From assembly GCA_008632985.1 (NCBI GenBank), contig QPGO01000072.1, positions 62,001 to 126,000 on the forward strand: a DNA stretch of 64,000 nt, given 5' to 3'. The DNA comes from Psammoneis japonica (taxonomy: Eukaryota). Below, piece by piece: positions 29,466 to 61,088 of the stretch. Numbering within the stretch: the first letter of the stretch is position 1; the number at the start of each line of letters is the position of its first letter. The notes beneath the pieces were generated by a model that was given only the letters and a program-made list of their open reading frames with translations, did not search any database and had not been told where the DNA came from. Made by a program: the position numbers and the translations under genes.

Positions 29466-29763
29466 TGTATGGAAAATTATCAAGAGAAGTATCAAATAAC
29501 ACGGCCGTTGAGATGATTCGGTAGGTGTCAAGTGTCAACTTTTTACTTTTTGTGATGGGGTTCGGGTCGTGCGTTCCTTCCACGCACGGCGCGCAACCTC
29601 AGCATATAAAATTTCACGGATTTTGATGATTCAACTGCCAAAACTACTCTACTAGGCTACTAGAGAGTAGACCTACTACCGGTAACGCTTAGCTAGGTAG
29701 GAGAAGCACGAGTGCACATCATTGAATTCTTCACTAAGTATTATTGCTCTATTCAGAGCGAGG

Positions 29764-32700
29764 TCAAATGGAGCTGGCTGCGGTTTCAATGGCCAAACTC
29801 ACATATTCGTCCACCAAACTAAAATCACTCTGAAGTAGCTTTCCGAGTATTTCGGCACTTTCTTTGTCGTTCGTTGCACGTAGCCTTGCCTTCAACTCGT
29901 TCAAAACAAGCTGCGCGCCAGTCTTGGAATTTACTGCCAAAGTATTAATGGCGAGCCGTTTCACATCAAGAAGGTCCTTGCTGACTTTAGACGGATCTAC
30001 AAACAGGGCTCTCACAAACTCTTTCGTGATGCTACCTTCCATGTCTGCCATGTCAACTCGCATCATCTCGATGATCAGAACTAACAAATGAAACGTCACG
30101 GGTTCTGCACAAGTCCCACAACGTGTTGGCGTGAACGGAACTTCGGATTTGACGGATCCCAAGTCCAACAACGCATCATGTTGTAGCCTTACCCACGCGT
30201 CAATTCTTCGTCGAATTTCGTAGCATTCCCGCTCCGCCTCGCGCATTAGCCGGTACAGACGAGCGCACTCTTCCGACAGTTTCTTAGGCGATTGTTCTTC
30301 ATCCTTTTCCTTACCACCACCGCTATTGCCGCTCCCCCCACCACCTCCTCCTTCCCCGGCACCACCATCTTCGGCATCACCAACTCTTCCACTTTGTCCT
30401 CGAGACCGGGATTGAATACTAGCTACCAAACGACTGAGAGAATCCGAAGAGTCGAGTGGTAGGACGTCCACTCCATCAGCGCCGCTGAAGAAACCAAGCA
30501 CGTCCCCGTCCTCTTCCATATCTTCCACAAGCAGACCTGTGCTGCTAGAATTCAATAGCGTTTGGCGAAGCAACAAGTCACCACTTCTTCGATCAGAATC
30601 GCTCCCACGTAGTTGACGGGCCAAGCGAATCAAAGATCGTGCTCTGTTTGCAGACGAACCGCGACTGCCAGACGACGGACGTCGCGATGCGATTGACGCA
30701 ACGGCCGATTCTCGTACACCACTGCCGCTCCGCCCGCTTCTTCCTTCACCCCCCTTTCCGCCGGTAGAAGGTGGAGGCTTCCCAAGAAAGGCACGTTTTA
30801 GCGATGGCCCGTGCGAAGAGAGAGCCTCAAACTCTTCGAAATCTCCCCAACGAGGGCGTTTCTTCGTTCCACAAGACAAAACCTTTTCCTTCAGCTTTGA
30901 CCGGAGATCACCATGCAGTTTTGTCGCAACGCGCAAGATTTTTGTCGCTCTCGCATATGAATCCTCATCAACAACAGCCACGGCATTCGAAGCAATGCCC
31001 GCGGTAAGTTCATAGTCAAAGCCTCCGCAGGAGCAATAGCCGCATTCAACACACAAGAAGGCATCCAAACGGTCGTAATTGATATGTCGACATTTCCTGC
31101 ATTGAAAAGCAACTTCTCCACAGTTTCCGCACACTCCGTGAGCATTCGTGACAAGCCTCGTACACCTCGGACAATGGAGTACAAGCGAGCCGTCTGAGGA
31201 CCTACTCGTGCTCCCCGGCCTGTCGTGGAACTCCAAATATTCAAATTTCAAGTTTGCAGCTACAACGGGCTCAGGCAGAGTACAGGAAAAACGAGAAGCA
31301 CCGCGTGATAGAGTAAGCGTAGCGCATCGCTGCCACATGGAAGAATACTCCTCACTCTTGAGAGTGTTGACGTCGACAACTTGCCGCGGCGTGAAGTAAA
31401 CAGCAATGGTTTTGACGTATCGAGCACGTGGATCGGTTACCGTCAGGTGAATATTTGACACCGCAAGTCGGTACTTTAGCTGGACAAAGTTCGAAAAATC
31501 CGTGCTCACTGTCGCATCGGTCGATGACTCCAGGCTGCCTCGAACGAAGGGTTTGACCTGGTCGGGAAGCCACGGTGTTTCAATCGGTTGGTCGCGCGAG
31601 GTGCCGTGTTCGCAATGATCGGCGTCTTGAGACTCTTTCGGCAAAGAGTCTGACAGTGATTGTCTATGGCAATAGCTACAACATGCCAGATTGAATCGAG
31701 TCTCTGACGATTCGCCATCCGCAGTTTTCGTTTCTAGAACGACGAAGTCCTCTCCCACACCACCGCTCGAATCTTGGTATAATGTTTGCATCTGCAGAGT
31801 GAAACTTCGGATGATTTTGTTGGCAGCGCGTTGTAGCGCCTGGGATCCTTTACAGCGACGAACGAGGGTTTGGACAAAATCCAGAAATTCAACAGAACTC
31901 TCTCCTATTGCGCTGATTTCACCGAGAGGCGTATCGACCATTTTGTCCAGCAGCGAAGTCGAATCTTCCGGCGACAAATTTTCACACAGCCTCTCTGCCA
32001 CTTGACTGACCACTTTGCGAAGCTCGTGCGTTCTGCCTTTGAGGACAAACTGGACGACGAGGGCGTGAATTTCTTCAACATTTAGACCTCTTTGGCCACC
32101 AAGTATAGCGTCTTCTGGCTTAGCGTTGGTGTCGCCGTTGTAGAAAGGGTTTGTCTGTGCAATCCCAACAGTGGCAACCTCGCTTTCGAGTCCACCATCG
32201 GAACTCAACCCTTCCCCGCCGTCCTGAAAAGCATCGTCGATCCAATCGTCCGGAGGATTCAAAGCATTTTCAAGAAGCGTAAACGCTTTTATCTGATTTG
32301 AGCCCGTCAGCGAGCATGCCACCCAGAGAAGGGATACCATGGGAGGGCAAGAAGCAGTTACATTGACCTCCTGAGACGTCTCGTCCTCTGTCGATTTTAC
32401 CGAACTTTTTTGTCCTCCGGCAGAAACCACTGAGAGAAACTGTCGCCAATTTTTACATCGGCTGCGGGCTACTTCAAGTAACTCATCTAGCACCGCTGAT
32501 ATCTTCTTACTTGATTCAACAGCGACACAACCTTCGGAAAGCAAGTCTTGAGTCCCAATCAAGCCGCCAGCTCGCAGGTTCGTCCAAGCAACCCGCTCAG
32601 CTTTTTTCCAGCTAGTACCGCAGCGTCTGGCTTGCTCTTTCCTGACGATAGCTTCCTCTAAACAGCCAAGGGAGCACTTGATGAGGTTGTCATACTCAAA

Positions 32701-35700
32701 CCCAAATACGTAGTGATCCCGTACATTTTGATAAACCGCCCGTCGCATACCACAAAACCGTTTCAATGCGTTTTTGGCTAGCAAGCGAAAAGGACTCGAT
32801 GAACCAGGGCTGATGATCTGACATAACAGGGAAAACCAATTTAGAATAGATTCGTCGTTCGGGACCACTTGGGTAGAGTCCTCCGCAACGAGAGAGAACA
32901 ATTCAAGCACAGCGTCAATTGATGACCCTTCGCCTTTCGGCAACTCCACTGGTTCGCTCGAGTGTGTGTGGTCATGCGGTCCTTGTCCAGGCTTACGTCT
33001 CCGGGAAAAGGCAGGGCTATTGGAATATGACAGTTTCTCCTTGCTGCAGAAAACGCCATCTTTCAGGTCATTGTAGGCAGCCTCGCTGTCATACTCACTG
33101 TCTAATCGAGCAATTCCACCAACTTTGGCGTCGCCTGTAGATTTCACCTCCGAAGGGCGACACACTTGTGGCTCGCGCGAAACCTCGAAGCTGGAGAACT
33201 CTCTTGCTAGAAAGTCGCATAGTTGAGCGTGGAGGGGCACGGAGCCAGGCAGAAGAGGGGCGGTGAGTAACTTCCAAATGAATTGGGGCATCTCGGCCAC
33301 ATACAACATGTTTGGATCCGAAGCGTCGTCTAAGCCAGCATCATCAAGGTCTGCCCACTTGAAGTAGTTGCATCGCGACTTTCTCTCCAAACCGCAGACA
33401 TAAAACCTTCGATTTTTGTTGACACCACTGGAGCATCTACGTCTCACTGCCGGAACACCATGAGCTTCACAAACAAACCTTGGATCTGTCTTTTCTTTTG
33501 ATCTCTCTGGTACACCGACATGGCTTTCACATGGCGCGAGATTGTCAGGAAATGCGATTTTGTCAGAGATTGATGATAGATCGTTTTTCTGGCGGACAAG
33601 GCAAATAAGGCACCGCAGGCACACCACAAGATCCATTATCGTCTGCCCCGAAGCCTTGCCATGGGTCTCGCCACCGCCGCATGATCGCAACAGTTCTGAT
33701 ACTTTGGCTGCCAGTTTCTTTGCAAATCGCTTTCCTCTCTCAAGTTTTATCTCATCCAGATCAGAACTAACTATCACACCAAGGACCATCTGAAAGATGG
33801 GCACGGATTTTGTCACAGCTTCTTTACTGTTCGAGGGAAACACGACATTAAGGATTTTCGTGAAGATCATGTCGTTGAAAGTACCTCGTCGTGACAATTG
33901 AGCGTCGACCTCAACTTGTTCGTCCATTGGTAGCAGGCCTGTCTGACTATTAGAGATCCCCCCAATTGCTTGCCGAGCCTGTTCCACCTGCTCTTGGATG
34001 TTCCCCGCGATAGAAACTGGCTGCATTTGCTTTATTTGTGCGCAGGTTAGGCTCGACCCTGTCCCTAGTCTCAAGGTCCTTCCACGTATCAAAACTTCAG
34101 TTCCCGAATCATAGCCATGTAGAGACGAGATTTGATCCCCAATCTGAAAGCATTGCGCACAAAGGTCGATGTCATGACCACCTTCAAGAAGCGTGAAGCG
34201 CTTATCCGTGATAGGAAACAACGAGCAACTGTCGCATTTATATGCAATGGGGGCAGAAGATTCGTCTCTATCCACCGGGGTTGGCGAGTTACGGCGGTGC
34301 AACGCTTCGTCGTCAGTACGTGCTTCCCGCAAGAAAGACAACATCGACGTGCAGGCGCTTTCCACTACTGTCAAATCGTCATCTTGCAGTAGCCTCGATA
34401 GGATCTCAAAATCAGCGAATCCCTCGGTGCTATCACCTCCCGACTTCCACGGCACTGACATTTCGGCAAGTATCAGTTTGACCAGGCATGGAACAACAAC
34501 CCTGCAATCCACGAAAGAATTTCTTCCGCTTTCCACCAGCTTCCACGCATTTATCGCCAGAGATAAGGAGGACGGGTCATCGGTAAATATCTTTAGGATT
34601 GACCGCAAATATATTTGAGGATGCTGCGTCGCAATTCTGGTGCCAATAGTACAGCAGTCAGTCAGCACAGTTTCTACTTGCGACCATGCATCAGCGAGGG
34701 GCGAACGAGCTTCCGAATCGCTTGAACCGACGTGTTCATCGGTAGATAATTTGGATTCGAAAGCTACTTGAGCACGATTCAAAGCCCGCGACAAGCCGAA
34801 AATTATGTTCTCGTCCAAAAAAACTTGGCGCCTGCCTGGGTCGTCTTCAACAGCTTCAAACAGACCCACCACGCCATCCCAGACATCTCGGTTCTCCTTG
34901 GAAGTCGTTGCCGTAGCGTGAATTATTCGACTCAATGTCTTTTTGCATGCCACAATGTCGGAATCATCTTTTTCAAGGAAGTTGCATGCATTTGTTGCAG
35001 CGGCGATACTCAGAACTAGAGCTCGCTGAGCATCTGGCTGTTTCATCTCGATTCCTAAGTTCTCCTTTGTCTGCTGAACCACTTTTTCGTTTTCAGATTC
35101 CAGTCCTTTCGGGAGCCATGAATCAATATACTTCCTCTCCGTCACGTACACTTCTACAGCATCAACTATCGGACTATTCCCGCTCTCGGACGAGCGGCCA
35201 ATACCAAGCGACACAAATCCGTTCCGAATCGACAGCGCCACCTCCTCGTGCGATAGAGGTAGGTCGTACCAACGCTTGGACTCGGCCTTCAGCTCAACTA
35301 TTCGACCCTCGACCATCAATTTTCTGGGAATAAAATCAGATCTCTTCGACCCAACCAGCACCCTGAGCGCAACAATTGCGTAGCGTTCTTGGTCCACGAC
35401 TTCCGATTCATGCGTTTCCCGGGGAATATGCTGTCCGAAACTGCACTCGGCTTCGTGATTTCGCAGGCGGCGGGGGAGTGAGATTGTGATTGTGCATCCC
35501 TCCTGTGAAGGCGCCATAAAAAATGCGCTGCTCTTAGTGGATAGCTTAGATTTTACCCCTCGAGAGTCAGAACCAACCCCGTCCGTACTGAAAGACAGTT
35601 CGTCCCAGTCGCTTGCATTGATCAATTTTTCGAAGACGGTCAAAGGAAAGCACGGCTTTGCATCCTGAGAAAGCGGGGCGCTGCTCGGTTGGTTAGAATC

Positions 35701-38700
35701 CCTCGCCACTCCTTCGGCGAAAATGAGCATTGCTCCATTCGATGTGACAGCAACGAGGAACGCGCGTTCGCACCAGGGTGTGTCGCCACAAAATTTTGTT
35801 AAATCGCAGGCGTCGCTCGAGATGAGAGGAGCAGTGAATGCCGCCACACCTTCAAAACACTCAGAAAGACTTAGACCAAGCCCCATTGAAACCCCTGAAG
35901 GCCAAGACAAATGCTTGACTTTGGAAGTTCTTTCGTTGTACTGAATACACAGGACTTTGGGTTGACCGGTTGTAGATGACTGCCCGACGCAAGCCACTCG
36001 AAAGTACATATCGCCGTCTTCCATCACTACACCTAGCTCTGTCCAATGGGCGAACGGGCCCTTGATAGCAAAACCACCCGCCCCTGTTCCAAGCATTTCG
36101 GATGATACAACGTTCGGCAACATTTCAAAACTTCCAGAAATCCTACCATCCGAGTCAAATACTAAAGCCAGCACACAAGATGACAAGCAACTATAGAGCA
36201 ACAATCCACTTTGAGACAGATAGACCAGCCCGCATGTGGAGCCTTCACCGAGGCTGCGAACAGCTGACGGCGCATCAGACGGAGTGGTTAAACCAACTCC
36301 AGCAACGGGAATAGAGACGCTGTCTTCATAATCCAGATATCGCTCTCCCTCATCTTCTAAATCCCCCCGACTATCAGCTTTGACATCTACCACATGAGTG
36401 CGACCGGAGTCAAGGAGCAGGAAGAGCTTGACAAAGGTTTCCTTTCGAAGCTCCATTGCATCAGAAGCTTCTTCGCTGGTCCGATGGACCGGCACAAGTG
36501 CTATGTCTCGTATCATCGCTTCGAATGCTAGATTGTAACAAATCACCGGCAGCAAGCGTGCATCGTTCTCCGCTCTTTGAACAGAAAATATTTTTACGAA
36601 AGGGCCGCATGCAACGGCTAACAACGTTTGCGATCCTGGCAGCCATTCGCATTTCAGCAAGTAGTCAGACTCGCATTCTTCAGGCTCCAAATCAAAGATG
36701 AGTTCATAAGTCTTCTCAACTCGATTGCACATCGAATTCAATACCACTATGCAGGCCTCAGCAGTACCCCACACGGCAAGATGGCGCTCATTTTCCCCAC
36801 AGAGTTGCATCCCGACGATATTGAATTTTAAAGGAGACGAGCCCAAAATGCACAACTCGGCTCTGCGTTCAAAAGGAGCGTTGCAGGGTTCTTTGATGTG
36901 TCGCACATTGACAGCTGGTAAACCACTGCAGAATAGAAGGGAGCATGGTTCAGCGATAATCAGCCTTCCTCGGCTGTCTGCTGCAATTGCCCGTCGTTTG
37001 ATTTGATTTCTTGACAGCATCGATCTCTTGAGTTGATTTGTTGTGGAGTCCGCGGAAAGTGCCATCTTCAGCGAATTCGACTTCGCCGCCCTGACAATCA
37101 ACAAATAATGAACAAATACTGGAAACCGTTAGAAGCAAGAGGCGTAAATTGGGAGATGTCGCGAAGACAACTTACCTCAGTGGTAGCATCGCAGTGGCTT
37201 CAAGGGATTGCAGTTCCAGAGCCTGTCCTCGTCGGGCGGCGATAGATCTTCTCAAGGATTCAAAGATATCTTCTGAGCTACGAGCTCCCGAGGCGAGATT
37301 AGCATTCCTACCAACAGGTGGTCCAGAAGTTTCGAATGCGCAGGCATTGTATTGATGAAGAATCAAGCCAAAGAGGGACTTGATCCACGACGACTCGATG
37401 GAGGCTTCTTTCAGATCCGCAATTGACGATTCTGCCTCGCTTCTGAACGATTGGCAAATAAGTTCTAGCCAACGAGGCTCGATCGTTCTACTTTCGCTCG
37501 AGGACGATGGTTTCGGATTCTCCATTTTTATCTCGGGGCTTGCCAATTCGTAAATATTGCGCTCCGACGGCGCCGAAGGACCCAAGGCGTCAGACGAAAC
37601 AGGTGTCATACATTTGCACGAGATGCGGTCTCCCTCGTCCTCGGAAGGACAGTCGCAGTAAAAATTACTGAAATTCAAGGTAAGATAGTACATGTGAAAG
37701 CAGAAGTGAAGAGAGCACCATAGAACTCACCTATGGCGCGAATAGCCGACATCATGCCCATTATGACAAACTCTTGCGCAAACTGAACAGCAACCACGGT
37801 CCCATACAAGTCCGCAAGTGTAGCAATTATACCAGTGTTGATCTTGGAAACCCTTGTCGCGCACATATGAACACACCAGAGCGCCACTCCCGGTTTGTGT
37901 GGTCTTCGAGAAAGTCTTGGCGTTGCTCGTGCCCTTCGTCCCCGGATCTACAAGAACGACACCATCTTCGGGCATTCGTTGGAGCGCCTCGACAACTTCA
38001 ACGACAAACCGGAAGAAACGTTCGAGCGAATGAAGGTCGGGACCAGATGTCGAGTGTATATCAGGGGGGTCTGAAACCAATTTCGAGCCGACGTCTTTCA
38101 GACGACCTATACGCGTTCCCAGCAGGAATAGGAGGTCCAAAACATGATTGACGGGTTGATCGCCGCAACACAACTTGTCGATTCCATCGAGAAGGATCGA
38201 AAACACACGCTGGGTGATGTTTCTGCATCTGTCGCCCGGTCGGGCAAATATAAAACACAACATGTGACTGATCATTTTGCTTTTCTCAATATTTGCTTTG
38301 GATTCGGAAGCAGTCGTCGATTTTGACGGTATCAAACAAATATCTTCCAGTAAGACTATAGAGAGTCGAGCATCATCGAGTCTTTCGAAAACAGAAGCCA
38401 TGGAGTCTGCTAGCTCGGTTATGCCAAGACATGACAGTCCCGAGAGCGTGCGAGCCAAACAAGCGTTCGCGTCAGAATTCAATTTCGCCTGGTCATGGAA
38501 CAGCAGCGACACCATTTCCGTTATCGCTCGTCGCCGCGTTGCTTCAGATCGCCACTCAAGAACAAGAAGCTTGCATTCGAGAGGTAAAGGCGTTTTGAGG
38601 AATGTCCCAGTACACTCCACTGAACCAACGATACACTTTAGCAGGAGACCAGTCGGGTAACCGAGGAAACCGGCTGTTTTCAGGTACCCGTCCTCAACCT

Positions 38701-41700
38701 TCAGACTTTCTTCGCCTCCGGTAGGTGACGAGGACAATAAAAGAGCACCGCTTTTCTCGTCAAAGACATCTTCCACTCGGTTTGCTTCGATTGCTTGGAT
38801 TAGACCTTCGAGAATAATATTCGAAGCAGTTACATCCTGCTGTGCCATCTTTTTCGCAGTCAACATGTCCCCAATCACAATCATAGAGGACACGGCAGTG
38901 CGTAGGAACTGCATATGCTCCAAATCCATCATGAGCTCTGAATCAATTGATAGATTTGCTGCCACCGCATAGCAAGTCAGTGTACAGTCATTGCTGCGAA
39001 GACTCGTTGATGACATTGCTGGTAAAAGAGACAAAAATCGCCAAACGGACGCCTTAGTGCTGTCCGCAACAGAGGAAGCGACTTTCAAATCTTCGACAAA
39101 TCGAAGTGGTTTTATATAATCAACTACTCCGTCGTCGTCTGTTTCAAGTTGATTAAGAGCGTGACGACCGCGCCCAACTGCTCCACTCAATCCAAAGCGC
39201 AAAAGAGCTGCCGCCGGCATGGCGTTTGACACAGTTGTTTCGTACACTCGCCTCCAGCGTTCGGCGCCCAACATAAAGTCATTTGTCTCCTTATTTGAAG
39301 GATTGTGCAGCAAGTTTTCTGATTTCAGTTCGAGAGAAGATCCAAGAAGCGCGACCGACAGTAGTAACTCCCACTCCCCAGCAGCACGGAGCTCGCCTAG
39401 AGTTGGCTCCCAATCATCAAAAGTAATGGTTCGAGTTCCGAACATTCCGTTTATTCTTTGCACCGAATTGGGACACCAAGCACCCAATGCAAATGCTTTG
39501 CTATCCCTGGAAGGAACACCAAGCACACCTTTCAACACCTCCTTGTCCACTTTACAGATCCGAGAGATCACGTTCACATAGTCCGGAAAAAGTTTCAGTA
39601 CCAACTCTTCGGGTTTCTTCCGGATCATAAAACACAGCTGAAGTGCAAGCGCAGATCGTCGATCCGCGTCTGGACCATGTTTGACACTAGACTTTATGCC
39701 TTCGAACCAGCATTGCACGTAGCGAGTGTGTGCGTACTGAGCTAACTTGTTGTAGCATGTAATAGCCCTCTCCGCCACAGCTACAGTCTCGCTTGCATTC
39801 ATTCCGCTGCGAATCTCGCAGCTCGTATCTAGCCAATCAGGATGCAATGGAGCCGCACCAAATGCGAGGGAAGCTTCATGAAGTCGGTTGATTCCGTCCA
39901 TTCTTGCGTCCTCGTCAGACTCAGAATCATTCTCGGAATCGCATTTGTCGTCATAAGAATCCATGTCTCTGGCGTTGCTTCGCTTCAGTGGTTTACGACC
40001 CTGTGTGCTCTGGAAGAAGGAGTCGTTACCCGCTGTAGTGTACTGTGACACAATAAAGGCGACATAGACCGACAGGGCCTCAAATAGCGCGAAACCACCC
40101 AAGGAAAGAGAATCAAGTTCCTCGCTAACAAGAGCCTCGACCAATGCATCCGCCTTATCCATCATGGTCTTCAGCGTGTGTTTAATCTGAAATGTCGAAG
40201 CCTTTTTTCCTTTGTCGCGTTTCCTCAAAACACTCGAGAGCAGGGAATGAGAGGTGGCGCTGTCGTCACCATGGATTTCGCGGTTGGCACGACACATGTC
40301 GTCCCGCAGCTCAATGAGAAGCTCAGGTGCAACACCAGAAACTGAATCTGAGCGGGTTTTTTTAATCGTGAGTTTAGCGGTGTCCCATGCGCTGGCCTTA
40401 CCCGATGCATTCCAAGCTGCAAATAGAAGGTGGCATTTATCATTGGGCGCCGACGACATTCCAAGCTCGAGCGACGCTCGAAAGATCAAAGTCAATTTCT
40501 TTTTCAAATCGCCATCTAACGGCTTTGCCCGGTCCGGAAGGCTAACCTCTGGAATCAACGGTGACTCCCAATATAAGAAAAGTCCCATGAAGCATTGTTC
40601 GCTAGTGTACCAATCGTCATTAGGGTGCAAAGTTCCTCCCACGTCGTTGCGCGTTGAGATTGTCGGAAGACTATAGTGGCTCTGACCGACATGCCTAAAC
40701 AGAGAATCCCGGAGGCTTGGCGCAACATAAACAGTGTGAACAACCGTCACAGAAACAGTTATAAGTCGAGCAAGAAACCTTGAAACTGCGCTTGTACTGC
40801 AAAGTAGAGTCCTGTGCGGTTCGTTTGAATCAAGGGAAGACAGGCAAGCGAAAAGCATATTGACGAGATTCGACAAGCACGTTTCTTGTTCCTTCACTGG
40901 GAGGCGACAAAGTGCCGTCACGAAAAGCATTGAATCTCGAAGAGACAGTGGCACGCATCCACTTGGTAGAGCTCTTCCATTACCATACGGAAAAGTCCAT
41001 TCTGCAATGATGGTGAGGTCCTGAAGCGCCATCTCGATTGAAGTCAGATATGCGTTAACGATGAAGCGCTCTGGTGACGCGTCATCGCCATCTTTCAAAG
41101 GTTCACTCGCGAGATTAGAGGATACCAAGGCATGATGGATCGCTGGAAGGAAGAGAGGCCAGCTGTCTCTTCCTTCTTTCCCCCCGGATGCACTATCATC
41201 AATGGCAGCCACGGCGCGGAAAACAGCAAGGCGAGTAGACGAATCTCCAAGTATCGGGCCATTCGTGGCTTCGCGCCGTTGGGAGTCGTATGATGTTGTC
41301 TCCCGTCCGAGAACTATGCAAAGGTTGGTATGAGCAGTCCTACATCCACCAGCAACGAAATATTGGTAAACAGGGCAGACGTAACGTCGAAAGAATGCAA
41401 GGACGCAGAGCAACCTACCATAAAATCCTTTCGGCGTGGGTAAACCCCCCACCGCTAGAGCCACCGAAAACAAAGGGGCCCTTCTTTGTCCCATCACTTC
41501 TGGTCTGAATGCGAGTTCGTACCAACGTCTGGTCAAGCATTACTCCGAGTTGGACAAAGTCACACATGTGATGACACTTAAAGGATCCACGCAACGAAAT
41601 GCGAAGAGGGGACCGAGCGGACGCATGTGGCTGTGGCTGAAAACACATTCGAATCACATTCAAGACATCCGCCGCGAGTGCCGAGCGGGTTGAATTGATA

Positions 41701-44551: not shown

Positions 44552-44878
44552 ATGGCGAGAAACGCGAACGCCGTCCCCTCATCTACAAGCTGGGAATACG
44601 AGATACTATTGAAGTGGTTGGACAATATGTATGCGCTGTACTCATGGGTCAAGTTGGGTTTCTTCTCGCTGCTTGTTGTTGCGTCATTTTACAACGTTTT
44701 GACCCACGCCGTGTTCTTTGCTTTGTCGCTTCTAATTCTGCTCGCGCTCAACCAACAGCTCTTCCTGCAGGGTATGGCTAGTTGCACGGCTGCATCGAAC
44801 CCAAACGTGCGCGACCAACTAGCCCTACCCCGGCTAACTCATACTTATATATCCATTCTTGGAGGTTGGAATGAATGA
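44552..44878 (+). CDS. Possible small hydrophobic membrane protein
   Basis: ATG in an ACCATGG context, two hydrophobic stretches, divergent from UBR4-N; no homology recognised. Confidence 0.3.
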   Translation: MARNANAVPSSTSWEYEILLKWLDNMYALYSWVKLGFFSLLVVASFYNVLTHAVFFALSLLILLALNQQLFLQGMASCTAASNPNVRDQLALPRLTHTYISILGGWNE

Positions 44879-44929
44879 GTATTTGCCAAAAAATTCAAAA
44901 ATGAAGTTTCTCCCGATCGCTTTTTCTCT

Positions 44930-45330
44930 TGTCTTATGCATCCCATTGTTAAGCTTCTAACGAATTACTTTGTTGTCGGATGCATCCCACTGTACTTGTA
45001 TAGCATCTTAAAAGAATTTGTGGGTCACAGCGTTAAATGGGATCACGACCAGGTTGCTTTATTTATCATACAGCATTTGTTGTCGGATGCATCCCACTGT
45101 GTAAATGGGATCACCAAGTTGCTCTATTTAATATACAGCATTTGGTGTCGGATGCATCCCACAGTATGGCTTCTAAACAATTTACGGGTCACAATGTTAA
45201 ATGGGATCACGAGTTGCTTTATTTATCATACAGCAGCATTTGCTGTCGGATGCATCCCACAGTATGGCTTCTAAACAATTTACGGGTCACAACGTTAAAT
45301 GGGATCGCCACGTTGCTCTATTTATCATAT
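44930..45330. repeat. Degenerate tandem repeat (units of ~65-107 bp) carrying a GGATGCATCC palindrome
   Basis: tgtcggatgcatcccac at about 44973, 45080, 45146 and 45244; gggtcaca...gttaaatgggatc recurs three times. Confidence 0.8.
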
Positions 45331-45477
45331 CGCAGCGCTATTGCCTACTAAATATTGAAGGGATGCAGTATTCGGAAGAGGAAGCAAATAACGATATCCT
45401 TTCACTTTTTTTCACAACGGGGACAACAATCTCCTCACAAAATTGTGTCTGCGGCAGCTGTCAAGATCCCTTGCAAG

Positions 45478-46486
45478 ATGAAACTACTAGTCAAAGGTCT
45501 TCTTTGTATTTTGCCGCTAGCGTTCAGTGGAGCAGCAGGTACGAAACTCGAAACTCCGAACTTACAATGGGAGCGTATAACGTGCTGTTTGATTTCGTTG
45601 AACCATTGCGTGGCCATAATCCGTGTTCCTTTCTTTTTCACATTCTTCCTCAGACTATTACCCTTCACCCACCCCAAAGCCCAGTAAGCAAAAGGGGGCG
45701 TGTTGTTTGCCATATGGGGATTGCAAAACCGTTCATTCCGAGCGTAAATGTGTCAAAAAGCTGGATGGTGTATTTCTTGGATTCAATAAGAAGTGCAAGG
45801 ACGTGACCTGCCCTGCGCCGACGCCGTCGCCTACGTCAAAGCCCACGAAGAAACGTGGAGCATGCTGTGTCCCACATGGAAAGTGCCGTCGCGTTCCCGA
45901 ACCTGTATGCCTAGACAAGTTGGGAGGCTCTTTCAAAGGCTTGGGCACCAAATGTAAAGATTCTTGTCCGGTATCTCCAATGCCGAAGCGCGGAGCGTGT
46001 TGCTTGCCAGATGGAGCGTGCAAAAGCGTTCCTTCCGAAAAAGTGTGTGAGGACAAGTTCTATGGTTGGTTTCAGGGTGTCTCAACCAAGTGCAAGCAAG
46101 TTTCTTGCGGAGCTCCAAGCAGTTCCAGTGGAAGCAAGGGTGGCTCCTCTGGCTCAAGCAGCAAGAGTAAGGGTGGCTCCTCTGGCTCAAGCAGCAAGAG
46201 CAAGGGCGGCTCCTCTGGTTCAAGCAGCAAGAGCAAGGGCGGCTCCTCTGGTTCAAGCAGCAAGAGCAAGGGCGGCTCCTCTGGCACAAGCAGAAAGAGC
46301 AAGGGTGGCTCCTCTGGCACAAGCAGAAAGAGCAAGGGCGGCTCCTCTGGCTCAAGTAGAAAGAGCAAGGGCGGCTCCTCTGGCTCGAGCGGTAAGAGCA
46401 AGGGCGGCTCCTCTGGCTCGAGCGGTAAGAGCAAGGGTGGCTCCTCTGGCTCGAGCGGTAGCAGCAAAGACAAGTATTATTACTAG
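45478..46486 (+). CDS. Secreted silaffin-like/cell-wall candidate: three GACC Cys-rich modules plus a Gly/Ser/Lys tandem repeat (exons 45478-45538, 45654-46486)
   Basis: Signal peptide MKLLVKGLLCILPLAFSGAA; GTACGA...CAG intron giving D-YYPSPTPKP; 3x KxGACC(L/V)PxGxC...C...G.F.G...KC; 10x GGSSG(S/T)S(S/R/G)KSK; C-terminal YYY. Confidence 0.8.
46133..46465 (+). repeat. Coding minisatellite, 33-bp unit, about 10 copies
   Basis: agcaaggg(c/t)ggctcctctgg... repeats in frame. Confidence 0.95.
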
Positions 46487-47141
46487 TAGCTGGTACGGCT
46501 GCGAATAGTGAAAGGGTGGCAAATTAGTTTAAGAATCATATCGACCAACAACCACGTCCGCATTGTATCTGATGTGCAAAACTTGTTCAGCTAGCTATAT
46601 GCGTACGAATCGATTCCTTCATCATCTCACCGATTCGAAACGAGGAGCAGACACACGTCGTTGTTCGTGGAAACCTTACCGTACACGCGCTGCTTGATTG
46701 CGCGTCTTGCGGTTCTCCAGTAACGAATTGTTCCATGGATAGCATTCGAATTCCTTCTTCGTGCTCGTCAACCACGCCAATGACGGATTTGTCTCATTCG
46801 ACAAGGTGGACTGAGTTCTATCTCTTCCGAGCAAGGCCGAGTATAGAAATCGCCCTCTTCCACGACACTTGATGTTCTCGATTACCTTCATCACATACCT
46901 TATTCATGGTGTTTGAGGAAACAGCCTTGCCGTCGGTAGTGGATAAGTTCAACTTGTACAAGACTGTTTTCCTTATCCAGGTCCCAAACATACCAGTAGC
47001 GTTCCTCCATCGTCGTCAGAAGAACACTCTGCTCGTGTCGCTACTAAAAGTAGAGTGATCCTTGGCTCAGGTTGACTTGTCTTCATAGTTGTTGCTCTTG
47101 AAAAGATACTTTTCTACTTTTTGGGTGGGTCTAATCTTGTG

Positions 47142-47795
47142 CTAGTCCATTTCATCCAGAATCGCTGTGAGTATGACCATGAGGACTTGATCCGTTCCTG
47201 GATTGATCTTGAGTATCGAGGAATTGTGCGTTCCACGTTTGATGTAATTGCACTGACGGCCTTTTCTGTACACATACGAGGTAAAGTCATTGTCTCGTCG
47301 CGTCGCGTAGGTTGGTTTTTCGTCTGGTTGCTGGTTATCCAACATGACGGTGACGGTAGTCGAACTAACTTTCTCATAGACCTTGGCGTATAGGTACAGA
47401 ACTATGCCTCCCTCGTATTTAAGTGTAGATTCTTGGCCTTCATAGAGTGGCACGGGTGTGTAAATTTTGAATTTATCCTTGGCCGAAAGGACATCGTTAC
47501 GAATCATGAGCGCCACAAGGTTTCCACTTGCATCCTTCATGTCCATTTGATCGCCTTTTAGAATTCCACGCTTGCCTTTGATTGTTAAACCATAAAAACT
47601 GCTTTGATCGCAATATTTCAGGATATAACTGTTTCCTCCTTTTCCTTGAAAGGATTGTTTATACATGACAACTTCGGAAACTGAATCGGTCGATATCTTT
47701 GCACCTTGCTTGGCGCCAATCACCGGAATGTTGGGATCCACTGGATGGACATATTCGAAGACTTCTTCCACCGGACGAGAATCAGCGCAGCCCAT
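47142..47795 (-). CDS. Tubby-C/LURP-one-like protein with an MGC N-terminus (possible lipidation)
   Basis: 217-aa ORF; MKDASGNLVALM, FKIYTPVP and a C-terminal INPGTDQVLMVILTAILDEM helix typical of this fold. Confidence 0.65.
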   Translation of the reverse strand: MGCADSRPVEEVFEYVHPVDPNIPVIGAKQGAKISTDSVSEVVMYKQSFQGKGGNSYILKYCDQSSFYGLTIKGKRGILKGDQMDMKDASGNLVALMIRNDVLSAKDKFKIYTPVPLYEGQESTLKYEGGIVLYLYAKVYEKVSSTTVTVMLDNQQPDEKPTYATRRDNDFTSYVYRKGRQCNYIKRGTHNSSILKINPGTDQVLMVILTAILDEMD

Positions 47796-48130
47796 TTCTT
47801 ACCTCAGTAGAAGGTAAGAGGACTGTTGCAAGTGAGATTGTTCTTGTCGCCGTCGACTTCTCGACTTCATCCAACGTTTGGTTTACGGTCAAAAAAAAGT
47901 TCCGTGCGCCCAAGTTCAAAAGTTGGGAAGTTGAAGTGCCGGCGCGGAATCAAAAGTGCGCGAAACGCGCGGAAATTTTTTGAAATTGAGTGAGCGAGGC
48001 ATGCAACGTTGGTCCGCGCTGAGGTGGCGGGAACATCATGATCAACAACTGCATCACGAATCATCACAAGAACATCACCTCGATAACTCATTCATAATTT
48101 CCATTCATCTCTTCAAAAGAATAACCATCC

Positions 48131-49651
48131 ATGTGCAAGCCTACTCTTGTCGACGACACAACTATTCGTCGCGTTGTGATTTCGGGTGCAGGTCCCGCCG
48201 GTTTGCTCTTGGCTTTGTTGTTACTCCAGCGCAATGCCACATCACCTAATACAAAATATCATGTGACGCTTGTCGATGCACGGCAAGATTATGGTGTGTT
48301 GGACGAAACGGAACTCAAGAGATTTCGTTCTTGGATGATTGGTCTAGCGGGAAATGGTCTGTTTGCTCTTGATGAGGTACCAAATTTGCTGGATGACTAC
48401 GTGATACCCGTGGCGGTGCCGACCGAAAAGATTGCCTTGCACATTGGTTCCAAAGAAATCAATGTCGGAGGAACCGATATTGCTGAACAGTTGGAACTGG
48501 GAAATCGAGCCTTCACGGTGGATCGTAACTTTGTCGTGGCGGCGATTGCGCGTTGCTTGCACGACCAATACGGCGAGAATCACGACATGCTGGACAAGCG
48601 ATTCGAAACCAAACTCATGTATGTCGATTACGAGAATCAACGAGTTTTGTTGCGAAATGACGACGAGTCAGAACAGTACATTGACTATGATTTGTTGGTG
48701 GGATGTGATGGGATCCGGTCGGTCGTGAGAGAAGCCTTGGTCAAGAAGCACGTCGACTTTGAAATGGACGTTGGCGACATTTTTCAAAAGTTCAAGGCGG
48801 TTCACGTCCAGTGCCCTCCAGATGTTCATGACAAAACCATGCACATCTTGCCCAGTGTTTTTCCAAACATGAATGGCATTGCCTTGCCCGAAACAGGAGG
48901 CATGCTGAATATATCGATTGGCGGCGCTCGACACGATTTTGATAATTTCCCCGCCGAGCTGAAGAGCTCGGATCCCAAGGTGGTGGCGGCGTACGTCAAG
49001 GAAAATTTCAAAGCTTTTGAGTTGGTGGATTACATGGACTTTGCTCAAAAGTGGGTTGCGCTGAAACGGTGGAATCGAACGGGGTGTTGTCATTGCAACT
49101 TTTATCACTCGACCGAACTCAAGATTTGCATCATGGGCGACGCGGCGCACGCAACGTCTCCATCTATTGGACAGGGCATGAACAATGCCTTTGTTGATGC
49201 TCGTACCTTTGTACAATTGTTGGATCAACACAAGGATAACTTGGACGAAACGCTCGAGGCGTTTTCTCAAGAGCGTGTCAAGGAAGGAAACGCGTTGACG
49301 GATTTGGCCATGCACTTGTCCTGTCTCGATACCAAGCATCAAGCTATTGAATTGGCACACACCATGATTCGTACCATCGCATCTTCCATCATGCCACGAT
49401 TGGTCGACCGCCATCCCCAAACCATGATTGGTGAAGTGCAACACAAGTTGTCGGATATTTATGATTTGGCCAGCAAGCAGGGAATCGTTGCAAAACACCG
49501 ATACATCAACGACAAAATTCGTCGAGACTGTTTTGAACGAACCGTCGGCATGGTCAAGGACCAATCGGGATTGAGCGTGACGACCAAAGCTACCATGTTG
49601 GCGGCCCTTGTCGGGTTAACGGCTGCAGCTGCAAGGTATTATTTTGCCTGA
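48131..49651 (+). CDS. FAD-dependent monooxygenase (kynurenine 3-monooxygenase-like)
   Basis: GAGPAG Rossmann motif, DLLVGCDGIRS, MGDAAHATSPSIGQGMN, and a C-terminal hydrophobic tail. Confidence 0.88.
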   Translation: MCKPTLVDDTTIRRVVISGAGPAGLLLALLLLQRNATSPNTKYHVTLVDARQDYGVLDETELKRFRSWMIGLAGNGLFALDEVPNLLDDYVIPVAVPTEKIALHIGSKEINVGGTDIAEQLELGNRAFTVDRNFVVAAIARCLHDQYGENHDMLDKRFETKLMYVDYENQRVLLRNDDESEQYIDYDLLVGCDGIRSVVREALVKKHVDFEMDVGDIFQKFKAVHVQCPPDVHDKTMHILPSVFPNMNGIALPETGGMLNISIGGARHDFDNFPAELKSSDPKVVAAYVKENFKAFELVDYMDFAQKWVALKRWNRTGCCHCNFYHSTELKICIMGDAAHATSPSIGQGMNNAFVDARTFVQLLDQHKDNLDETLEAFSQERVKEGNALTDLAMHLSCLDTKHQAIELAHTMIRTIASSIMPRLVDRHPQTMIGEVQHKLSDIYDLASKQGIVAKHRYINDKIRRDCFERTVGMVKDQSGLSVTTKATMLAALVGLTAAAARYYFA

Positions 49652-49963
49652 GGAGACATTAAAAATTGAGTCACAACTAAAGAAATCAACTTAATTCTAT
49701 GGAGTTTCTGCGTCGTAGTTTCGCACTGCCATGGACTTTGTTGGTGGGATCTACCAATGGCTAGAAGCCACATAGGATGGTCTATCCGTCCGATTGCCCC
49801 CTATTGACCCGCGGTTTGGATGATTTGTCCGATTCAGGCACACACACTGAAGCCGCTATCGACTAGAGTCAAGAGGCAGTTTGCACCGTTTAGTGTCTAT
49901 GCCTCTGAGTGCAGTGCCTCTGCTCGGGTCAATCATGGCTCATTCTGCTGTAGCAAAAATCAG

Positions 49964-52459
49964 TTACAGAGTGTATCCAAAGTTTTTGAAATCCACACTG
50001 TACACTTCTTTAATGATGCTGTTGGTCTGTTCATTCTTGGTAAAAAGCTCATAGTCTGGATACGACGGTGTTTCATTCATGTGAACCATTTCCTCGTCTT
50101 CTTCTTGACTGGTAGCAATTCCTGGTTCTTCGTGGAGACAAGGAATCACGCGAGTCAGCTTGCTCATGTCCTTGCTCAAATTCTCGAGATGAAAAATATG
50201 TTGAACGACAATTTCGTCATTCTCGTCCACCAACCAGCTCGTTTGCGTAGCGTTAAAGGATGAAAATTCCTCATTACCGTGACCCCTGGAACCAAAGAGG
50301 TAGTTCTTTCTGGATCCCGGTGGATACATTTCATATAGTTTGAACACGTAGTCGTGAAAGAGCTCCACCATTGTCTCGTCACTTAGCTTTCGTAAATCCA
50401 CACTTGTAGGTATAAGCCGGTCGTCGCAAAATGACCTGGGCATGTTGGTGCATTGTTCCATCAAAAAGAAGAAACAAGAAACTTGTCGTGCTAGGGGGTG
50501 TCGCACAACGGCAAATGATGCAGCATTGTCCCACTCTTCTTTTCCTACGTAATCGATAAACGACGTGGCCGAGGCATGAAAACTGCGATGACTCTCGCCC
50601 CAATGCCCTGAGACATACTGCTCGGGACATCGTTCCTGCAACATTCTTATCATACTTGTGCCACCCGCTTTGTTAATGTGAACAAAGAATAATGGTTTTT
50701 GTCTCTCGTCCGAAGAGTCCTCACTATCATCATAGTAGTACCCCTCCTCCTTGGCACGCTCGGACAACAACGCATCATTGTCTTTAGTTTCTGGACTAAC
50801 GTATTGCTGCATCTCGGGAGGTAAAATCACGGCGGCACCAATTGCAAAACCCCGATTCAATGTCATGTGTCCCCAGTCATCTGGGATATACATCATGTCT
50901 CCAGGTTTTTGCGTACATCGGAGAGTGTAGGTATCCTGCAACAACTTGGTAACATCTCGTGCCGGCATGCCTGTATAGCCTCTGTAGAAAGGTGGAGTCA
51001 AGGCCCATTCCTTCATGCCGGTAAAGAGGGCATTAAAGGCGGCTGGGTGCCAATGAAGCGTGGCACCAGAATCGTCACCACCAAAGAATAGTTGCCACCT
51101 TGGATTGTGATCTTGAGGAATTGTGTCGAAAAAGTCGGTAATCAAATGCCAACTCGATCTGGGGTGGTACACATCACCGTCGTACATCGGATAAATTTCT
51201 TTCCAATCCCAATGGTGGGGATGACGAGCATGCAGCATGGGAACACCCGGTTGTTCCCTGCATTCTTTCAAGTCTTCAATTTCTTGAATGGACATTTTAG
51301 CCTCACAACTCTCTTGTCCCGTCAGAAAGGGGTAGGCTGTAGGTCCAACCTTGACTTTAACTGCGGAATTGAAGCTTTCAGTAGTTTCCCAACGTGACTT
51401 GTCAAACTTTGCCAACTCTTCATCGGAAACATGCCGCTTGATCACAAAGGGCCGTCCAGGCAACCAATAGTCATTGTAAAAGGTTTCAGGAGACATGGTA
51501 CCATAAGTGACATCAATGTCACAACGGTTGTCAGGAACATAGTCGGGTTTCTTATACCAACCCGAATCTCGTATTGGTTCTTCTTCTTTTGGTGACTGCT
51601 TGGGTAGAGGTTGCCTGACTTTGATATTGAGATATTTCTTTGCATCATGTGGTAGAATAGGAGAAGCTTTCATGTTGACCCAATCCTTGACTGTCCGACC
51701 GAGATGATCAACGACGAAATTAACATTGTTGTCGGAAAGAATGGAAACTATTTCGGCATAGCCTCCACGGAGAGCCGCTTGAATGGCATTTAGCCTAGGA
51801 AGATCTTCAAAGTCGGCCTCTGCTAATGGATCGAGTCCGTACTTGGTCTTGAGCTTCTTGACAACCTCGGTCAAACCCATGGTGGCGGCCGCGACCAAGA
51901 GCGTGTCGCTCATTTCATTCTTATCCAGTAGATCAATGCAGTGCAAAAAGCACCTTTCCCGTTCTTCGATATCCTTGCGCATGAAATAAAAGTCAATGCC
52001 GCCAAGGAATGGGTTCTTGTGGTCGTTTTTGGGAGGAAATCGATTGGGATAAAAGTAGGTACAACGACCCAACGTCAGCTTATCCCCCCTCTGGGGCCCA
52101 TTTTCCGTATGACGCCTTGGAGCTATGATTTTTGCTCCTGGATTTTTGTGCATCAATTCGCAATTTTCATTTTCAAATGGATCCACCAGTTCTGGTTGAG
52201 CGAGATCCTGTGGTACGGAAATGATTTCGCCTTGTTGCGATACCATTTCTCGCACCGCCAAGTTTGTTTGTTGTGATTCAATCATGATGTAAAAGAGTGC
52301 AAAGGAAGTAAGTATGGTGAAAGTAAATCCACCTAGTCTGAAGATTTTGCCTTTGTGGAGGTGAAAGATTTTGCGACGAGATTTCCTTTTGTCGTCATCG
52401 TGGTTGTCCGCATGCGGTATTTCGTCATCCTTTGCTTTGCTGTTACGGCTCTCCAACAT
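49964..52459 (-). CDS. Type II membrane protein: ankyrin-like region, JMJD8-like JmjC domain and C-terminal sulfotransferase
   Basis: TM segment LGGFTFTILTSFALFYIMI; NAIQAALRGGYAEIVSIL; GDDSGATLHWH...KEW...CTQKPGDMMYIPDDWGH; FVHINKAGGTS (5'-PSB) and VRHPLARQVS (3'-PB); YSVDFKNFGY end. Confidence 0.85.
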   Translation of the reverse strand: MLESRNSKAKDDEIPHADNHDDDKRKSRRKIFHLHKGKIFRLGGFTFTILTSFALFYIMIESQQTNLAVREMVSQQGEIISVPQDLAQPELVDPFENENCELMHKNPGAKIIAPRRHTENGPQRGDKLTLGRCTYFYPNRFPPKNDHKNPFLGGIDFYFMRKDIEERERCFLHCIDLLDKNEMSDTLLVAAATMGLTEVVKKLKTKYGLDPLAEADFEDLPRLNAIQAALRGGYAEIVSILSDNNVNFVVDHLGRTVKDWVNMKASPILPHDAKKYLNIKVRQPLPKQSPKEEEPIRDSGWYKKPDYVPDNRCDIDVTYGTMSPETFYNDYWLPGRPFVIKRHVSDEELAKFDKSRWETTESFNSAVKVKVGPTAYPFLTGQESCEAKMSIQEIEDLKECREQPGVPMLHARHPHHWDWKEIYPMYDGDVYHPRSSWHLITDFFDTIPQDHNPRWQLFFGGDDSGATLHWHPAAFNALFTGMKEWALTPPFYRGYTGMPARDVTKLLQDTYTLRCTQKPGDMMYIPDDWGHMTLNRGFAIGAAVILPPEMQQYVSPETKDNDALLSERAKEEGYYYDDSEDSSDERQKPLFFVHINKAGGTSMIRMLQERCPEQYVSGHWGESHRSFHASATSFIDYVGKEEWDNAASFAVVRHPLARQVSCFFFLMEQCTNMPRSFCDDRLIPTSVDLRKLSDETMVELFHDYVFKLYEMYPPGSRKNYLFGSRGHGNEEFSSFNATQTSWLVDENDEIVVQHIFHLENLSKDMSKLTRVIPCLHEEPGIATSQEEDEEMVHMNETPSYPDYELFTKNEQTNSIIKEVYSVDFKNFGYTL

Positions 52460-52759
52460 GGTAGAAAGAACCAGCTTTTGAAACAACAATGCCTTGCGTT
52501 GACCTGTCTCAGTTATCAATTCACCACCCTGGGCAGGGTTCTGTGGAGGTAGGGCCCTAGAGAAAATACGAATAGATTTACAAAGAAAGCTGGAGCTGCC
52601 TGTCGTCCACTTTGGATGTTTTTGTGAGCAAGAAGTGATGGCTCCTTGCTCTTGCCTTTACTAGCCGTTGAACGCTCTTTTCGCTCGCGAAAAACGCATC
52701 CAACGCACGACCCCAACGGACAATCGTTAATTGTAGCCTAAATTGCATTTATTTTTTTG

Positions 52760-53755
52760 TAAAACTTCAAGGCAAATCAGTACATTCAGACATGAAGATT
52801 TTGTAAACGCAAGCCGTGACCGTTTTTCCAAGATTGATGCTTCTTGAAGTTGAGAGACAGTGGCTGGTCTGTGGCCGGCACCCCCTTGTGTGAGCGCGGG
52901 GGTGCTGGACCTGTGTGCGGGGCCAAGCTCTGCTCTTTTGCACAATTGTTTGACAGCACACCCCATTGTACAAGCCAAAAAATGAGTTTCATTGTGGCTG
53001 TTTCTGAAAACAGAGTTGGGCTGAGATGTTTGAAAAAGGTGCCTTTGAGCAAACACTCTCTGGAGATGACTCGCACACTTCAAGCAGTCATGACAGGGGG
53101 GGCACGCCACTTCTCAAGTCAGTTGGAAAATTGCATTTTTCTGTGAGAGGCTGCCAGCTTGTTTGTTGCCCAAGAAACAGCTCTTTTGCTGCAGAGCTTG
53201 GCGCGCACTGCATTTTGCAGGCTGAACATTGCACGTGCTGTTGCATGTGGGGGGCTGGAGCACATGGTCACTTTTGTGGTTTTTGCCAGCTGCTGGTTGT
53301 TGCTGCTTGGGCACAGCGTGCCAGAGCGTGAGCTGGGGGGGTGTCGCGGGCACCTCCTTGGCATGACTGTTGGGTGCCCAACTTGCTGTTGTTGCGTGCA
53401 GGATGTCTTGGACTCCATTGTGCAAGAAGGGAAGTTGTGTGGGCAGGGCGGGGGACAACAAGCTGGCGGAGACTGGCTTTTCAGAGCAACAACCCAGCCA
53501 AACACTCTTTGATGTTCCCACAAACAATCATGGAGAGTTTTGCACATTGTGGCACTGACCATGTCTTTGTGCAGTGCAAAACATGTTTGGCAGACATCAG
53601 CCAGCAGAACCAGAGCTGGTCTTGTTGTGAAAACAAAAAAGGCTCCTCTCCACACTCCACACAGTGTTACTCCACAGCTCTTTGCTGCGAAAGTGGGTGA
53701 AGTGTGAACAACAACAATGACTTCCAGACAGAATTTGGCTTTCCAAAAAGTTGTT

Positions 53756-53795
<40 letters not shown>

Positions 53796-53950
53796 GCCCA
53801 TTGGGGCATCACGACCAGATGGCTGTGAGAGCTGTTGTGACAAAAAATGAGACACACCCTTCCACGAATTGAACTTGCGGGCGCTGGCCAGACGACGGGG
53901 TCTGGAGGTCTTGCGTGATGCGATGATTCGCGTGATTGATTGAGTGCATG
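52760..53950. mobile_element. Unidentified TpA-depleted repeat relic directly upstream of the UBR4 C-terminal gene
   Basis: No TA between 52971 and 53667, with CA/TG excess; no intact ORF or recognisable domain. Confidence 0.45.
53757..53794. repeat. (CT)n microsatellite
   Basis: About 19 CT units. Confidence 0.95.
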
Positions 53951-53956
53951 TGATGA

Positions 53957-53964
53957 TGACGTCA
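53957..53964. promoter_or_regulatory. CRE-like TGACGTCA palindrome ~110 bp upstream of the UBR4-C ATG
   Basis: Perfect palindrome followed by a CA-rich leader and ACCATGG. Confidence 0.35.
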
Positions 53965-54075
53965 TGTGTCAATAAGTAAACACACGCGCGTAGCCATCAT
54001 ACTGACCCCTACGTGACACAGAATTTGGGAGAGACACACAAAAAACTCACAACGAGCGACGCACAACACTACACC

Positions 54076-60982: not shown

Positions 60983-61037
60983 TATCGATTCAAAACGAAG
61001 TAAAAAACTGACAGAGCTAGCAGGTGGACAAGCAATT

Positions 61038-61088
61038 NNNNNNNNNNNNNNNNNNNNNNNNNNNNNNNNNNNNNNNNNNNNNNNNNNN
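61038..61088. other. Assembly gap (51 N)
   Basis: Run of N. Confidence 1.

Follow-up and report, generated by a model that had tools for sequence, protein, structure and literature searches.

The window analysed here, a stretch of 64,000 nucleotides from Psammoneis japonica (contig QPGO01000072.1, positions 62,001 to 126,000 of the forward strand), contains two genes for a giant E3 ubiquitin ligase of the UBR4/BIG type, which are located on opposite strands and which are, to judge from their sequences, complementary halves of one ancestral gene. What the window displays is the conserved two-gene UBR4 of the diatoms, the halves of which are often still neighbours, and not a recent inversion of 24 kb. 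Our favoured explanation, to which we assign a probability of roughly one half, is that the gene was split in an ancient fission in the diatoms and that the linked and divergent layout in the window was inherited from an old head-to-head arrangement of the two halves.

The N half occupies positions 29764 to 43905 on the minus strand and encodes about 4500 amino acids in at least four exons, as delineated from open reading frames (ORFs), Pfam and BLASTP searches and the conserved C-terminus. Its start codon (43905-43903) is located in a first exon of 26 bases that encodes the peptide MAPKRKRG and is followed by a GTAAGT intron, the rest of the gene is made up of four minus-strand ORFs (43808-41781, 41539-37727, 37726-37172 and 37128-29764), and the stop codon is at 29764-29766. 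The protein contains a UBR box, a ZZ-like motif, a GRF zinc ribbon and a Cys-rich domain, and thus represents the scaffold and substrate-recognition part of the ligase. The zf-UBR domain (PF02207), identified at the end of the second ORF, scored below the Pfam cut-off (E 0.0015 and 19 bits, as compared to a cut-off of 25.2) because the UBR box is split by an intron, such that the ORF piece holds the first 44 of the 69 profile positions. In BLASTP, this UBR-box piece was found to be 46-67% identical to the corresponding segment in six of eight fused UBR4 proteins (E 2e-12 to 7e-19), and PF02207 is present in the N-half homologues P0001, P0004, P0006, P0008, P0012 and P0014. The GRF zinc ribbon was recovered as a Pfam match in the last of the four ORFs. 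The Cys-rich region resembles residues 3557-3730 of human UBR4 and 3322-3500 of Arabidopsis BIG, as inferred from phmmer searches of the Protein Data Bank (E 2e-27 to 4e-29), and the cysteines of this domain are invariant in an alignment of the family (A3).

The C half is located on the plus strand between positions 54076 and 59584 and encodes about 1800 amino acids in at least three exons, with a head of about 600 residues followed by the E3 module. Three plus-strand ORFs contribute to the gene (53980-56502, 56303-58486 and 58487-59584), the start codon is at 54076 and the stop codon at 59582-59584. The E3_UbLigase_R4 domain (PF13764) was identified in all three of these ORFs (E 6e-12, 1e-43 and 7e-20), with matches that range over positions 12-785 of the 809 in the profile, and among the solved structures in the Protein Data Bank the C half matched residues 4121-4232 of Arabidopsis BIG. 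A motif of the LPLLxGL type, which reads SLLPLMEGL in this gene, is situated near the start in 18 of the 22 C halves checked, this one counted, and the terminus ELQKGIVSA agrees with that of P0016 and P0022.

The C halves also differ in domain content. UBA-like domains (PF22566, PF14555) follow the N-terminal motif in the Thalassiosirales-like C halves (P0018, P0019, P0023, P0025, P0204, P0212 and P0232, among others) and are absent from the C half in the window according to Pfam. The UBA-like insertion may mean that the E3 module, once detached, acquired a ubiquitin-binding part in a lineage-specific manner.

The two genes complement each other when placed on the fused proteins. In BLASTP alignments of the seven ORF pieces with eight fused UBR4 proteins of 3669-5385 amino acids, the N pieces were always positioned upstream of the C pieces and never overlapped with them; in the fused protein P0117, for example, the N pieces extend to residue 3380 and the C pieces begin at residue 4194. 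Furthermore, a profile built from 16 N tails matched an internal segment in four fused proteins (independent E 6.5e-8 to 2.5e-5), situated about 380-460 residues before the start of the E3 module. The collinearity of the pieces and the internal match of the N tail indicate that the gene was cut in a weakly conserved linker and that no large part is missing, and they place the cut some 400-600 residues ahead of the E3 module. A profile of the C heads gave no credible match to the fused proteins (the best one, with an independent E of 0.015, was misplaced), and no start motif was seen after the N-tail match in the four fused proteins. Finally, in a red algal protein of 2872 residues from Gracilaria domingensis (P0144), a weak match to the N-tail profile (independent E 0.09) upstream of the match to the E3 module hints at yet another fused form.

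The best studied members of the family, human UBR4 (PDB 9nwd, 9d9z, 9qws, 9hxw) and Arabidopsis BIG (9qt9), are giant E3 ligases that consist of a single chain. The parts encoded by the two genes are arranged in the same order as in these proteins, with a UBR box, a Cys-rich domain, a long helical linker and a C-terminal E3 module (PF13764). Unlike human UBR4 and BIG, they are encoded by two genes with their own starts and stops, both here and in every diatom relative found. Thus, the presence of all parts on one polypeptide, which is a feature of the UBR4/BIG family, does not apply to these genes, which are separate, located on opposite strands and make up a two-gene form of the family.

The separation is shared by the diatoms. 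A search with the last 755 residues of the N half as query among proteins of 4296-5000 amino acids yielded 15 matches, 14 of which are diatom or metagenome proteins of 4401-4975 amino acids that do not contain PF13764 and that cover 96-100% of the query. All 14 of these diatom-type N halves end within a few residues of the stop in this window; the fifteenth match is an insect UBR4 with PF13764. Among the species represented are Thalassiosira profunda, Cylindrotheca closterium, Seminavis robusta, Cyclotella cryptica, Epithemia clementina and Nitzschia inconspicua. Likewise, when the first exon of the C half was used to scan 1.84 billion representatives of any length, all 61 proteins recovered at E ≤1e-30 were stand-alone forms of at most 2386 amino acids. 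Proteins of more than 3000 amino acids appeared only from E 3.7e-20 onward (9 among the 150 matches listed), and the match was then located far inside the protein. A search with the E3 module among proteins of 1274-3635 amino acids was equally uniform, in that each of the 120 matches listed (1278-2802 amino acids) contained PF13764 and none a UBR or GRF domain. Transcripts labelled ‘type:complete’ in MMETSP are known for the N half as well as for the C half. Taken together, the diatom proteins range in size from about 4400 to 4975 amino acids for the N half and from about 1300 to 2800 for the C half, with a head of 600-1400 residues in the C gene.

Fused forms were observed in more distant organisms. 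We scanned metagenome contigs with an alignment of the start of the E3 module (A1) and obtained 64 loci with flanks of up to 10 kb. Matches to N halves were identified by tblastn (E ≤1e-6) in 12 of these loci, of which seven represent distant relatives and five close relatives in which the genes are separate. The Cys-rich domain in the seven distant loci is located 2-3 kb upstream on the same strand, and a single ORF was found to span the Cys-rich domain and the E3 module in three of the four checked (L051, 4368 amino acids; L057, 4531 amino acids; and L058, 2477 amino acids) but not in the fourth (L054). The fused forms in the outgroups indicate that the fused gene represents the ancestral state, and the identical end points of the cut in all diatoms examined argue for a single fission before the sampled lineages diverged. 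On the evidence of these comparisons, the diatoms encode UBR4/BIG as two genes, and the fission is old and long predates this genome.

The two halves are divergently oriented in four of the five lineages with readable orientation, this window counted. In L035, the N half is on the minus strand and the C half on the plus strand, head-to-head, with the putative start codons only 359 bp apart. The same head-to-head layout, with less than 713 bp between the starts, was observed in two contigs from different samples (L032 and L033). The halves are also divergent in L047, with about 6.8 kb and three ORFs between them, one of which encodes an ankyrin protein. The fifth lineage, L018, has a tandem arrangement in which the ORF of the N half ends at 4173 and that of the C half starts near 7868 on the same strand. 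The interval between them (4567-7324) contains two genes that are unrelated to those in the spacer of this window, one of the VKOR family (E 3.6e-19) and one with multiple exons that is flavin amine-oxidase or desaturase-like (E 6e-47).

Four named species were assessed from locus tags, the order of accessions and contig sizes, and in the case of Seminavis also from the coordinates in the names. The halves are adjacent in Epithemia clementina, as indicated by consecutive tags (ACA910_012973 and ACA910_012974), consecutive accessions and an equal-sized contig, and in Cyclotella cryptica, on a contig of 647 kb, their gene numbers differ by 5 or 8 according to the annotation used. In Thalassiosira profunda, they were found on separate contigs of 3.0 Mb and 209 kb, and in Seminavis robusta on different scaffolds (Sro367 and Sro461).

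To relate these layouts to each other, we used a maximum-likelihood tree that was obtained in a quick search from 32 rows of the E3 module, with midpoint rooting and support values from the Shimodaira-Hasegawa-like approximate likelihood ratio test (SH-aLRT). The window was placed in a pennate clade (SH-aLRT 99) with Thalassionema nitzschioides (P0182, taxid 33649), Seminavis, Epithemia and Nitzschia, whereas L018 and L035 paired with each other (SH-aLRT 91) outside the pennates. L047 was sister to Epithemia (84), and L032 was placed among the Bacillariaceae (97-100). With L035 outside the pennates and the window, L047 and L032 inside, the divergent order is not confined to one small group.

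The recurrence of a linked divergent layout among the relatives is most simply explained by inheritance. We infer the following order of events. An old inversion may have both cut the UBR4 gene and set up the divergent arrangement, if it broke the gene in the linker and the DNA once more shortly upstream of the promoter. The promoter would then have been flipped together with the N part and have come to face the C part. If so, one bidirectional promoter could have driven both halves and could have made the fission viable at the outset, and the two proteins would reassemble without a covalent link. In the lineage of Psammoneis japonica, four ORF-genes and a mutated, putative repeat would later have come between the halves, and the compact head-to-head form persists in some diatoms.

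Divergent starts as close to each other as those in the compact pairs are the textbook layout of co-regulated genes. The starts are less than about 1 kb apart in L035 and in L032/L033, as in gene pairs with a bidirectional promoter. The window is different, as its two start codons (43905 and 54076) are separated by 10,171 bp and four ORF-genes, which makes a shared promoter impossible here.

Alternatively, the gene may have been split in place, by a stop codon and a new internal promoter and start, into a tandem pair whose orientation changed later and independently in different lineages, including an inversion of about 24 kb, private to this lineage, that carried the N half along with its four upstream neighbours. 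The tandem layout of L018 shows that such an arrangement exists, the genes in the spacer differ among the window, L047 and L018, as independent rearrangements predict, and the geometry of the flip fits. However, L018 is not a pristine tandem since two genes separate its halves, and the divergent order dominates among the readable lineages, both inside and outside the pennates. Furthermore, the compact head-to-head form recurs in two unrelated lineages, for which inheritance accounts more easily than a repeated origin from breakpoints so near to both starts, and neither an inverted repeat, a remnant nor a gap was found at the proposed breakpoints. We therefore consider a tandem fission with later rearrangements possible but rather unlikely.

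Several observations nevertheless weigh against inheritance from a head-to-head ancestor. The tandem order of N and then C in L018 is sister to the head-to-head order in L035, and either state may thus be older, with at least one change of orientation since the fission. The tree itself was quickly made and midpoint-rooted, and has long outgroup branches. The cases of Epithemia and Cyclotella provide linkage but no orientation. Moreover, four organisms (L007/8/9, L022, L038 and L041) showed no N half in the 5.7-7.5 kb available upstream of the C half which, along with the separate contigs in two species, indicates that linkage has often been lost; loci other than those named have too little flank for the linkage of the N half to be judged. 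None of 13 neighbouring ORFs from the window had a match among the 64 related loci (tblastn, E ≤1e-5). The four ORF-genes in the spacer are accordingly without a counterpart in these loci, and may either have been later insertions or have been carried by an inversion. Finally, only the scan with the first exon of the C half bears on very long fused forms, the other searches being bounded at 5000, 4040 and 3635 amino acids.

A sequence-only reading of the window had proposed that a single inversion of about 24 kb either caused the fission or followed it, since a flip of about 29.7-54.0 kb, which includes the N half, would bring the 3' end of this half next to the 5' end of the C half on the same strand. 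The version in which the inversion followed the fission corresponds to the tandem fission with a later private inversion considered above. Its coordinates, the arithmetic of the flip and the back-to-back placement of the halves were borne out by the ORFs, the Pfam matches and the positions of the start and stop codons; flipping 29540-54075 would bring the stop of the N half to about 225 bp before the start codon of the C half. Such a geometry is true of every divergent gene pair, for which reason it carries no statistical weight and provides no evidence for an event. What goes beyond chance is the linkage itself, with two complementary halves located within 25 kb. The proposal holds in part, in that some old inversion is a reasonable explanation for the divergent layout, but no mark of one 24-kb event was found at 29.7 or 54.0 kb. 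Gene order in the relatives also went against it, as the same divergent order (L032/L033, L035 and L047) and unlinked halves (Thalassiosira profunda and Seminavis robusta) were both found.

The left junction is a spacer of 295 bp (29469-29763) between the stop codon of the N half and the start codon (29468-29466) of the next gene on the minus strand, and it has an ordinary composition (observed/expected TpA of 1.01 in 29467-29763). The right junction is a spacer of 1616 bp between the start codon of a JmjC-sulfotransferase gene (52459) and that of the C half. A repeat-mediated inversion would flip a segment and alter the relative orientation of genes, as in the proposal, but the repeat pair that defines such events is absent. 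Nine inverted pairs of 18-25 nucleotides (76-89% complementary) were identified in the segment 29000-54500, none of which joins 29469-29763 with 52460-54075, and blastn searches with a word size of 9 of each junction against the whole window gave no match. This agrees with the sequence-only reading, in which no matching inverted repeat had been seen at the left junction.

No assembly gap or shared repeat was found at either junction, and the sole run of undetermined bases in the window (61038-61088, 51 bases) is away from both. These results bear on the suggestion that a 24-kb segment was flipped by an assembly error and that the N half directly precedes the C half in the true genome. A wrongly oriented contig would look identical to what is seen here. 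Yet, independent diatom assemblies show the divergent order, among them the contigs L032 and L033 from two samples, and the split, which is present in every diatom relative, is borne out in many species by gene models and by complete transcripts. An assembly error would explain nothing that needs an explanation, and we regard it as highly improbable.

Remnants of UBR4 were also searched for. With N tails and C heads as queries in tblastn, none was detected at either junction, and the best match outside the two genes had an E of 0.013. This result is relevant for a scenario in which the whole gene was duplicated head-to-head and then decayed in a complementary manner, with one copy losing the C part and the other the N part, and with no breakpoint inside the gene. 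Duplication with degeneration of complementary parts is one of the classic ways in which genes become split, and it would yield a head-to-head pair directly. However, nothing N-like was detected in the window upstream of the C half and nothing C-like beyond the 3' end of the N half, the compact spacers of 359 to less than 713 bp leave no room for a decayed N copy of 14 kb, and among the C-head matches listed there is no match in the diatom range with a second, fused paralogue. We find this scenario improbable.

The TpA-depleted stretch and the (CT)n tract that had been noted at the right junction are real, with 6 TpA observed in 52760-53950 as compared to 71 expected. More precisely, a block that is TpA-free but for 3 TA in 1169 bp, poor in CpG and rich in CA/TG extends from 52805 to 53973 (observed/expected TA 0.04, CG 0.40, CA 1.72, TG 1.65) and fills 72% of the 1616-bp spacer. 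A (CT)19 microsatellite is located inside the block at 53757-53794 (19 copies with 100% matches in Tandem Repeats Finder). What was not supported is the view that this relic is a breakpoint feature, since the composition recurs in two larger blocks (3442-6521 and 12673-19414) that are unrelated to UBR4. These blocks contain 4 and 12 TA in 3080 and 6742 bp, respectively, and are full of overlapping ORFs; their observed/expected ratios are 0.02-0.03 for TA, 0.25-0.28 for CG and 1.64-1.95 for CA/TG on both strands, as compared to 0.42-0.50 for TA and 1.05-1.16 for CG in the UBR4 coding DNA. The Pfam cut-off was reached by none of the 11 ORFs in 52805-53973 and by none of the 22 ORFs in the two other blocks, and no similarity between the first block and the rest of the window was detected with blastn. 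Apart from the start of the C half, no feature specific to UBR4 is near this spacer. The block is better read as mutated inserted DNA, possibly derived from a repeat, upstream of the C half than as the scar of an inversion. It stops 102 bases before the start codon of the C half (53974-54075), which suggests that the present promoter of this half is probably within or at the edge of a TpA-free and heavily mutated block.

The remainder of the window is intron-poor eukaryotic DNA with a G+C content of 49%. Four ORF-genes are located between the two halves. The first (45201-46486, plus strand) encodes Cys-rich modules followed by a Ser/Gly-rich tail and has no Pfam family. Within it, the ORF at 45620-46486 contains four Cys-rich modules of the GACC(L/V)PxGxCK type ahead of the repeat tail, which is encoded by 9.8 copies of a 33-bp repeat (46133-46456) that give rise to SKGGSSGSSSK-like units. 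Just upstream of the Cys-rich ORF are tandem repeats of 65 and 98 bp with 87-88% matches (45034-45336). The second (47142-47798, minus strand) encodes a protein of 218 amino acids, also with no Pfam family, and the third (48125-49651, plus strand) an FAD-dependent monooxygenase (PF01494, FAD_binding_3, E 1.2e-17). The fourth (49964-52459, minus strand) encodes a fusion of a JmjC/cupin domain and a sulfotransferase, and its start codon (52459-52457) faces the C half. The label JmjC-sulfotransferase in the sequence-only reading was supported by the sulfotransferase match (PF03567, E 4.6e-10), with the matches to JmjC, Cupin_8 and Ank_2 below the Pfam cut-offs. The presence of JmjC/cupin and sulfotransferase domains in one ORF is an unusual combination.

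To the left of the N half, the neighbouring gene on the minus strand (27719-29468, start codon 29468-29466) was assembled from ORF pieces. The label ‘bestrophin-like’ given to it in the sequence-only reading could not be confirmed, as none of its four ORF pieces had a Pfam match at E ≤1. Downstream of the C half, the run of undetermined bases mentioned above directly precedes, in the direction of transcription, a minus-strand NUDIX ORF (60389-61036; PF00293, E 5.7e-14) and is inside a longer ORF (60389-61234). An open-ended ORF of 475 amino acids at the end of the window (62573-64000, minus strand) contains Cys/His-rich motifs near its end and has no Pfam family.

In full-text literature searches, we found no paper on a split UBR4/BIG in diatoms or stramenopiles, and no paper that combines gene fission, inversion and a bidirectional promoter. 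The text of one study with a match to stramenopiles (PMC4506424) merely lists, in the part concerned, the distribution of the UBR box.

Taken together, it is tempting to speculate that UBR4 in diatoms is an obligate ligase of two subunits which arose in one step by an inversion, with a bidirectional promoter that has co-expressed the halves ever since and with the LPLLxGL-type motif at the beginning of the C half serving as the peptide by which the E3 module docks onto the scaffold again. We offer this combined interpretation as a tentative one. If true, the persistence of the two halves as neighbours in several deeply separated lineages of diatoms would be explained by selection for their co-regulation.

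As for the genome of Psammoneis japonica, the layout of the window does not point to a recent rearrangement or to a fault in the assembly. More broadly, studies of UBR4/BIG deal with one polypeptide of more than 5000 residues, which carries its E3 module on a flexible arm. A phylum in which the scaffold and the E3 module are encoded apart represents a natural experiment that indicates where the enzyme tolerates a cut, and may serve as a guide for the design of split constructs. Finally, the compact head-to-head pairs provide a testable case of a gene fission that would have been immediately viable, in which a promoter borne by an inversion could serve both pieces.

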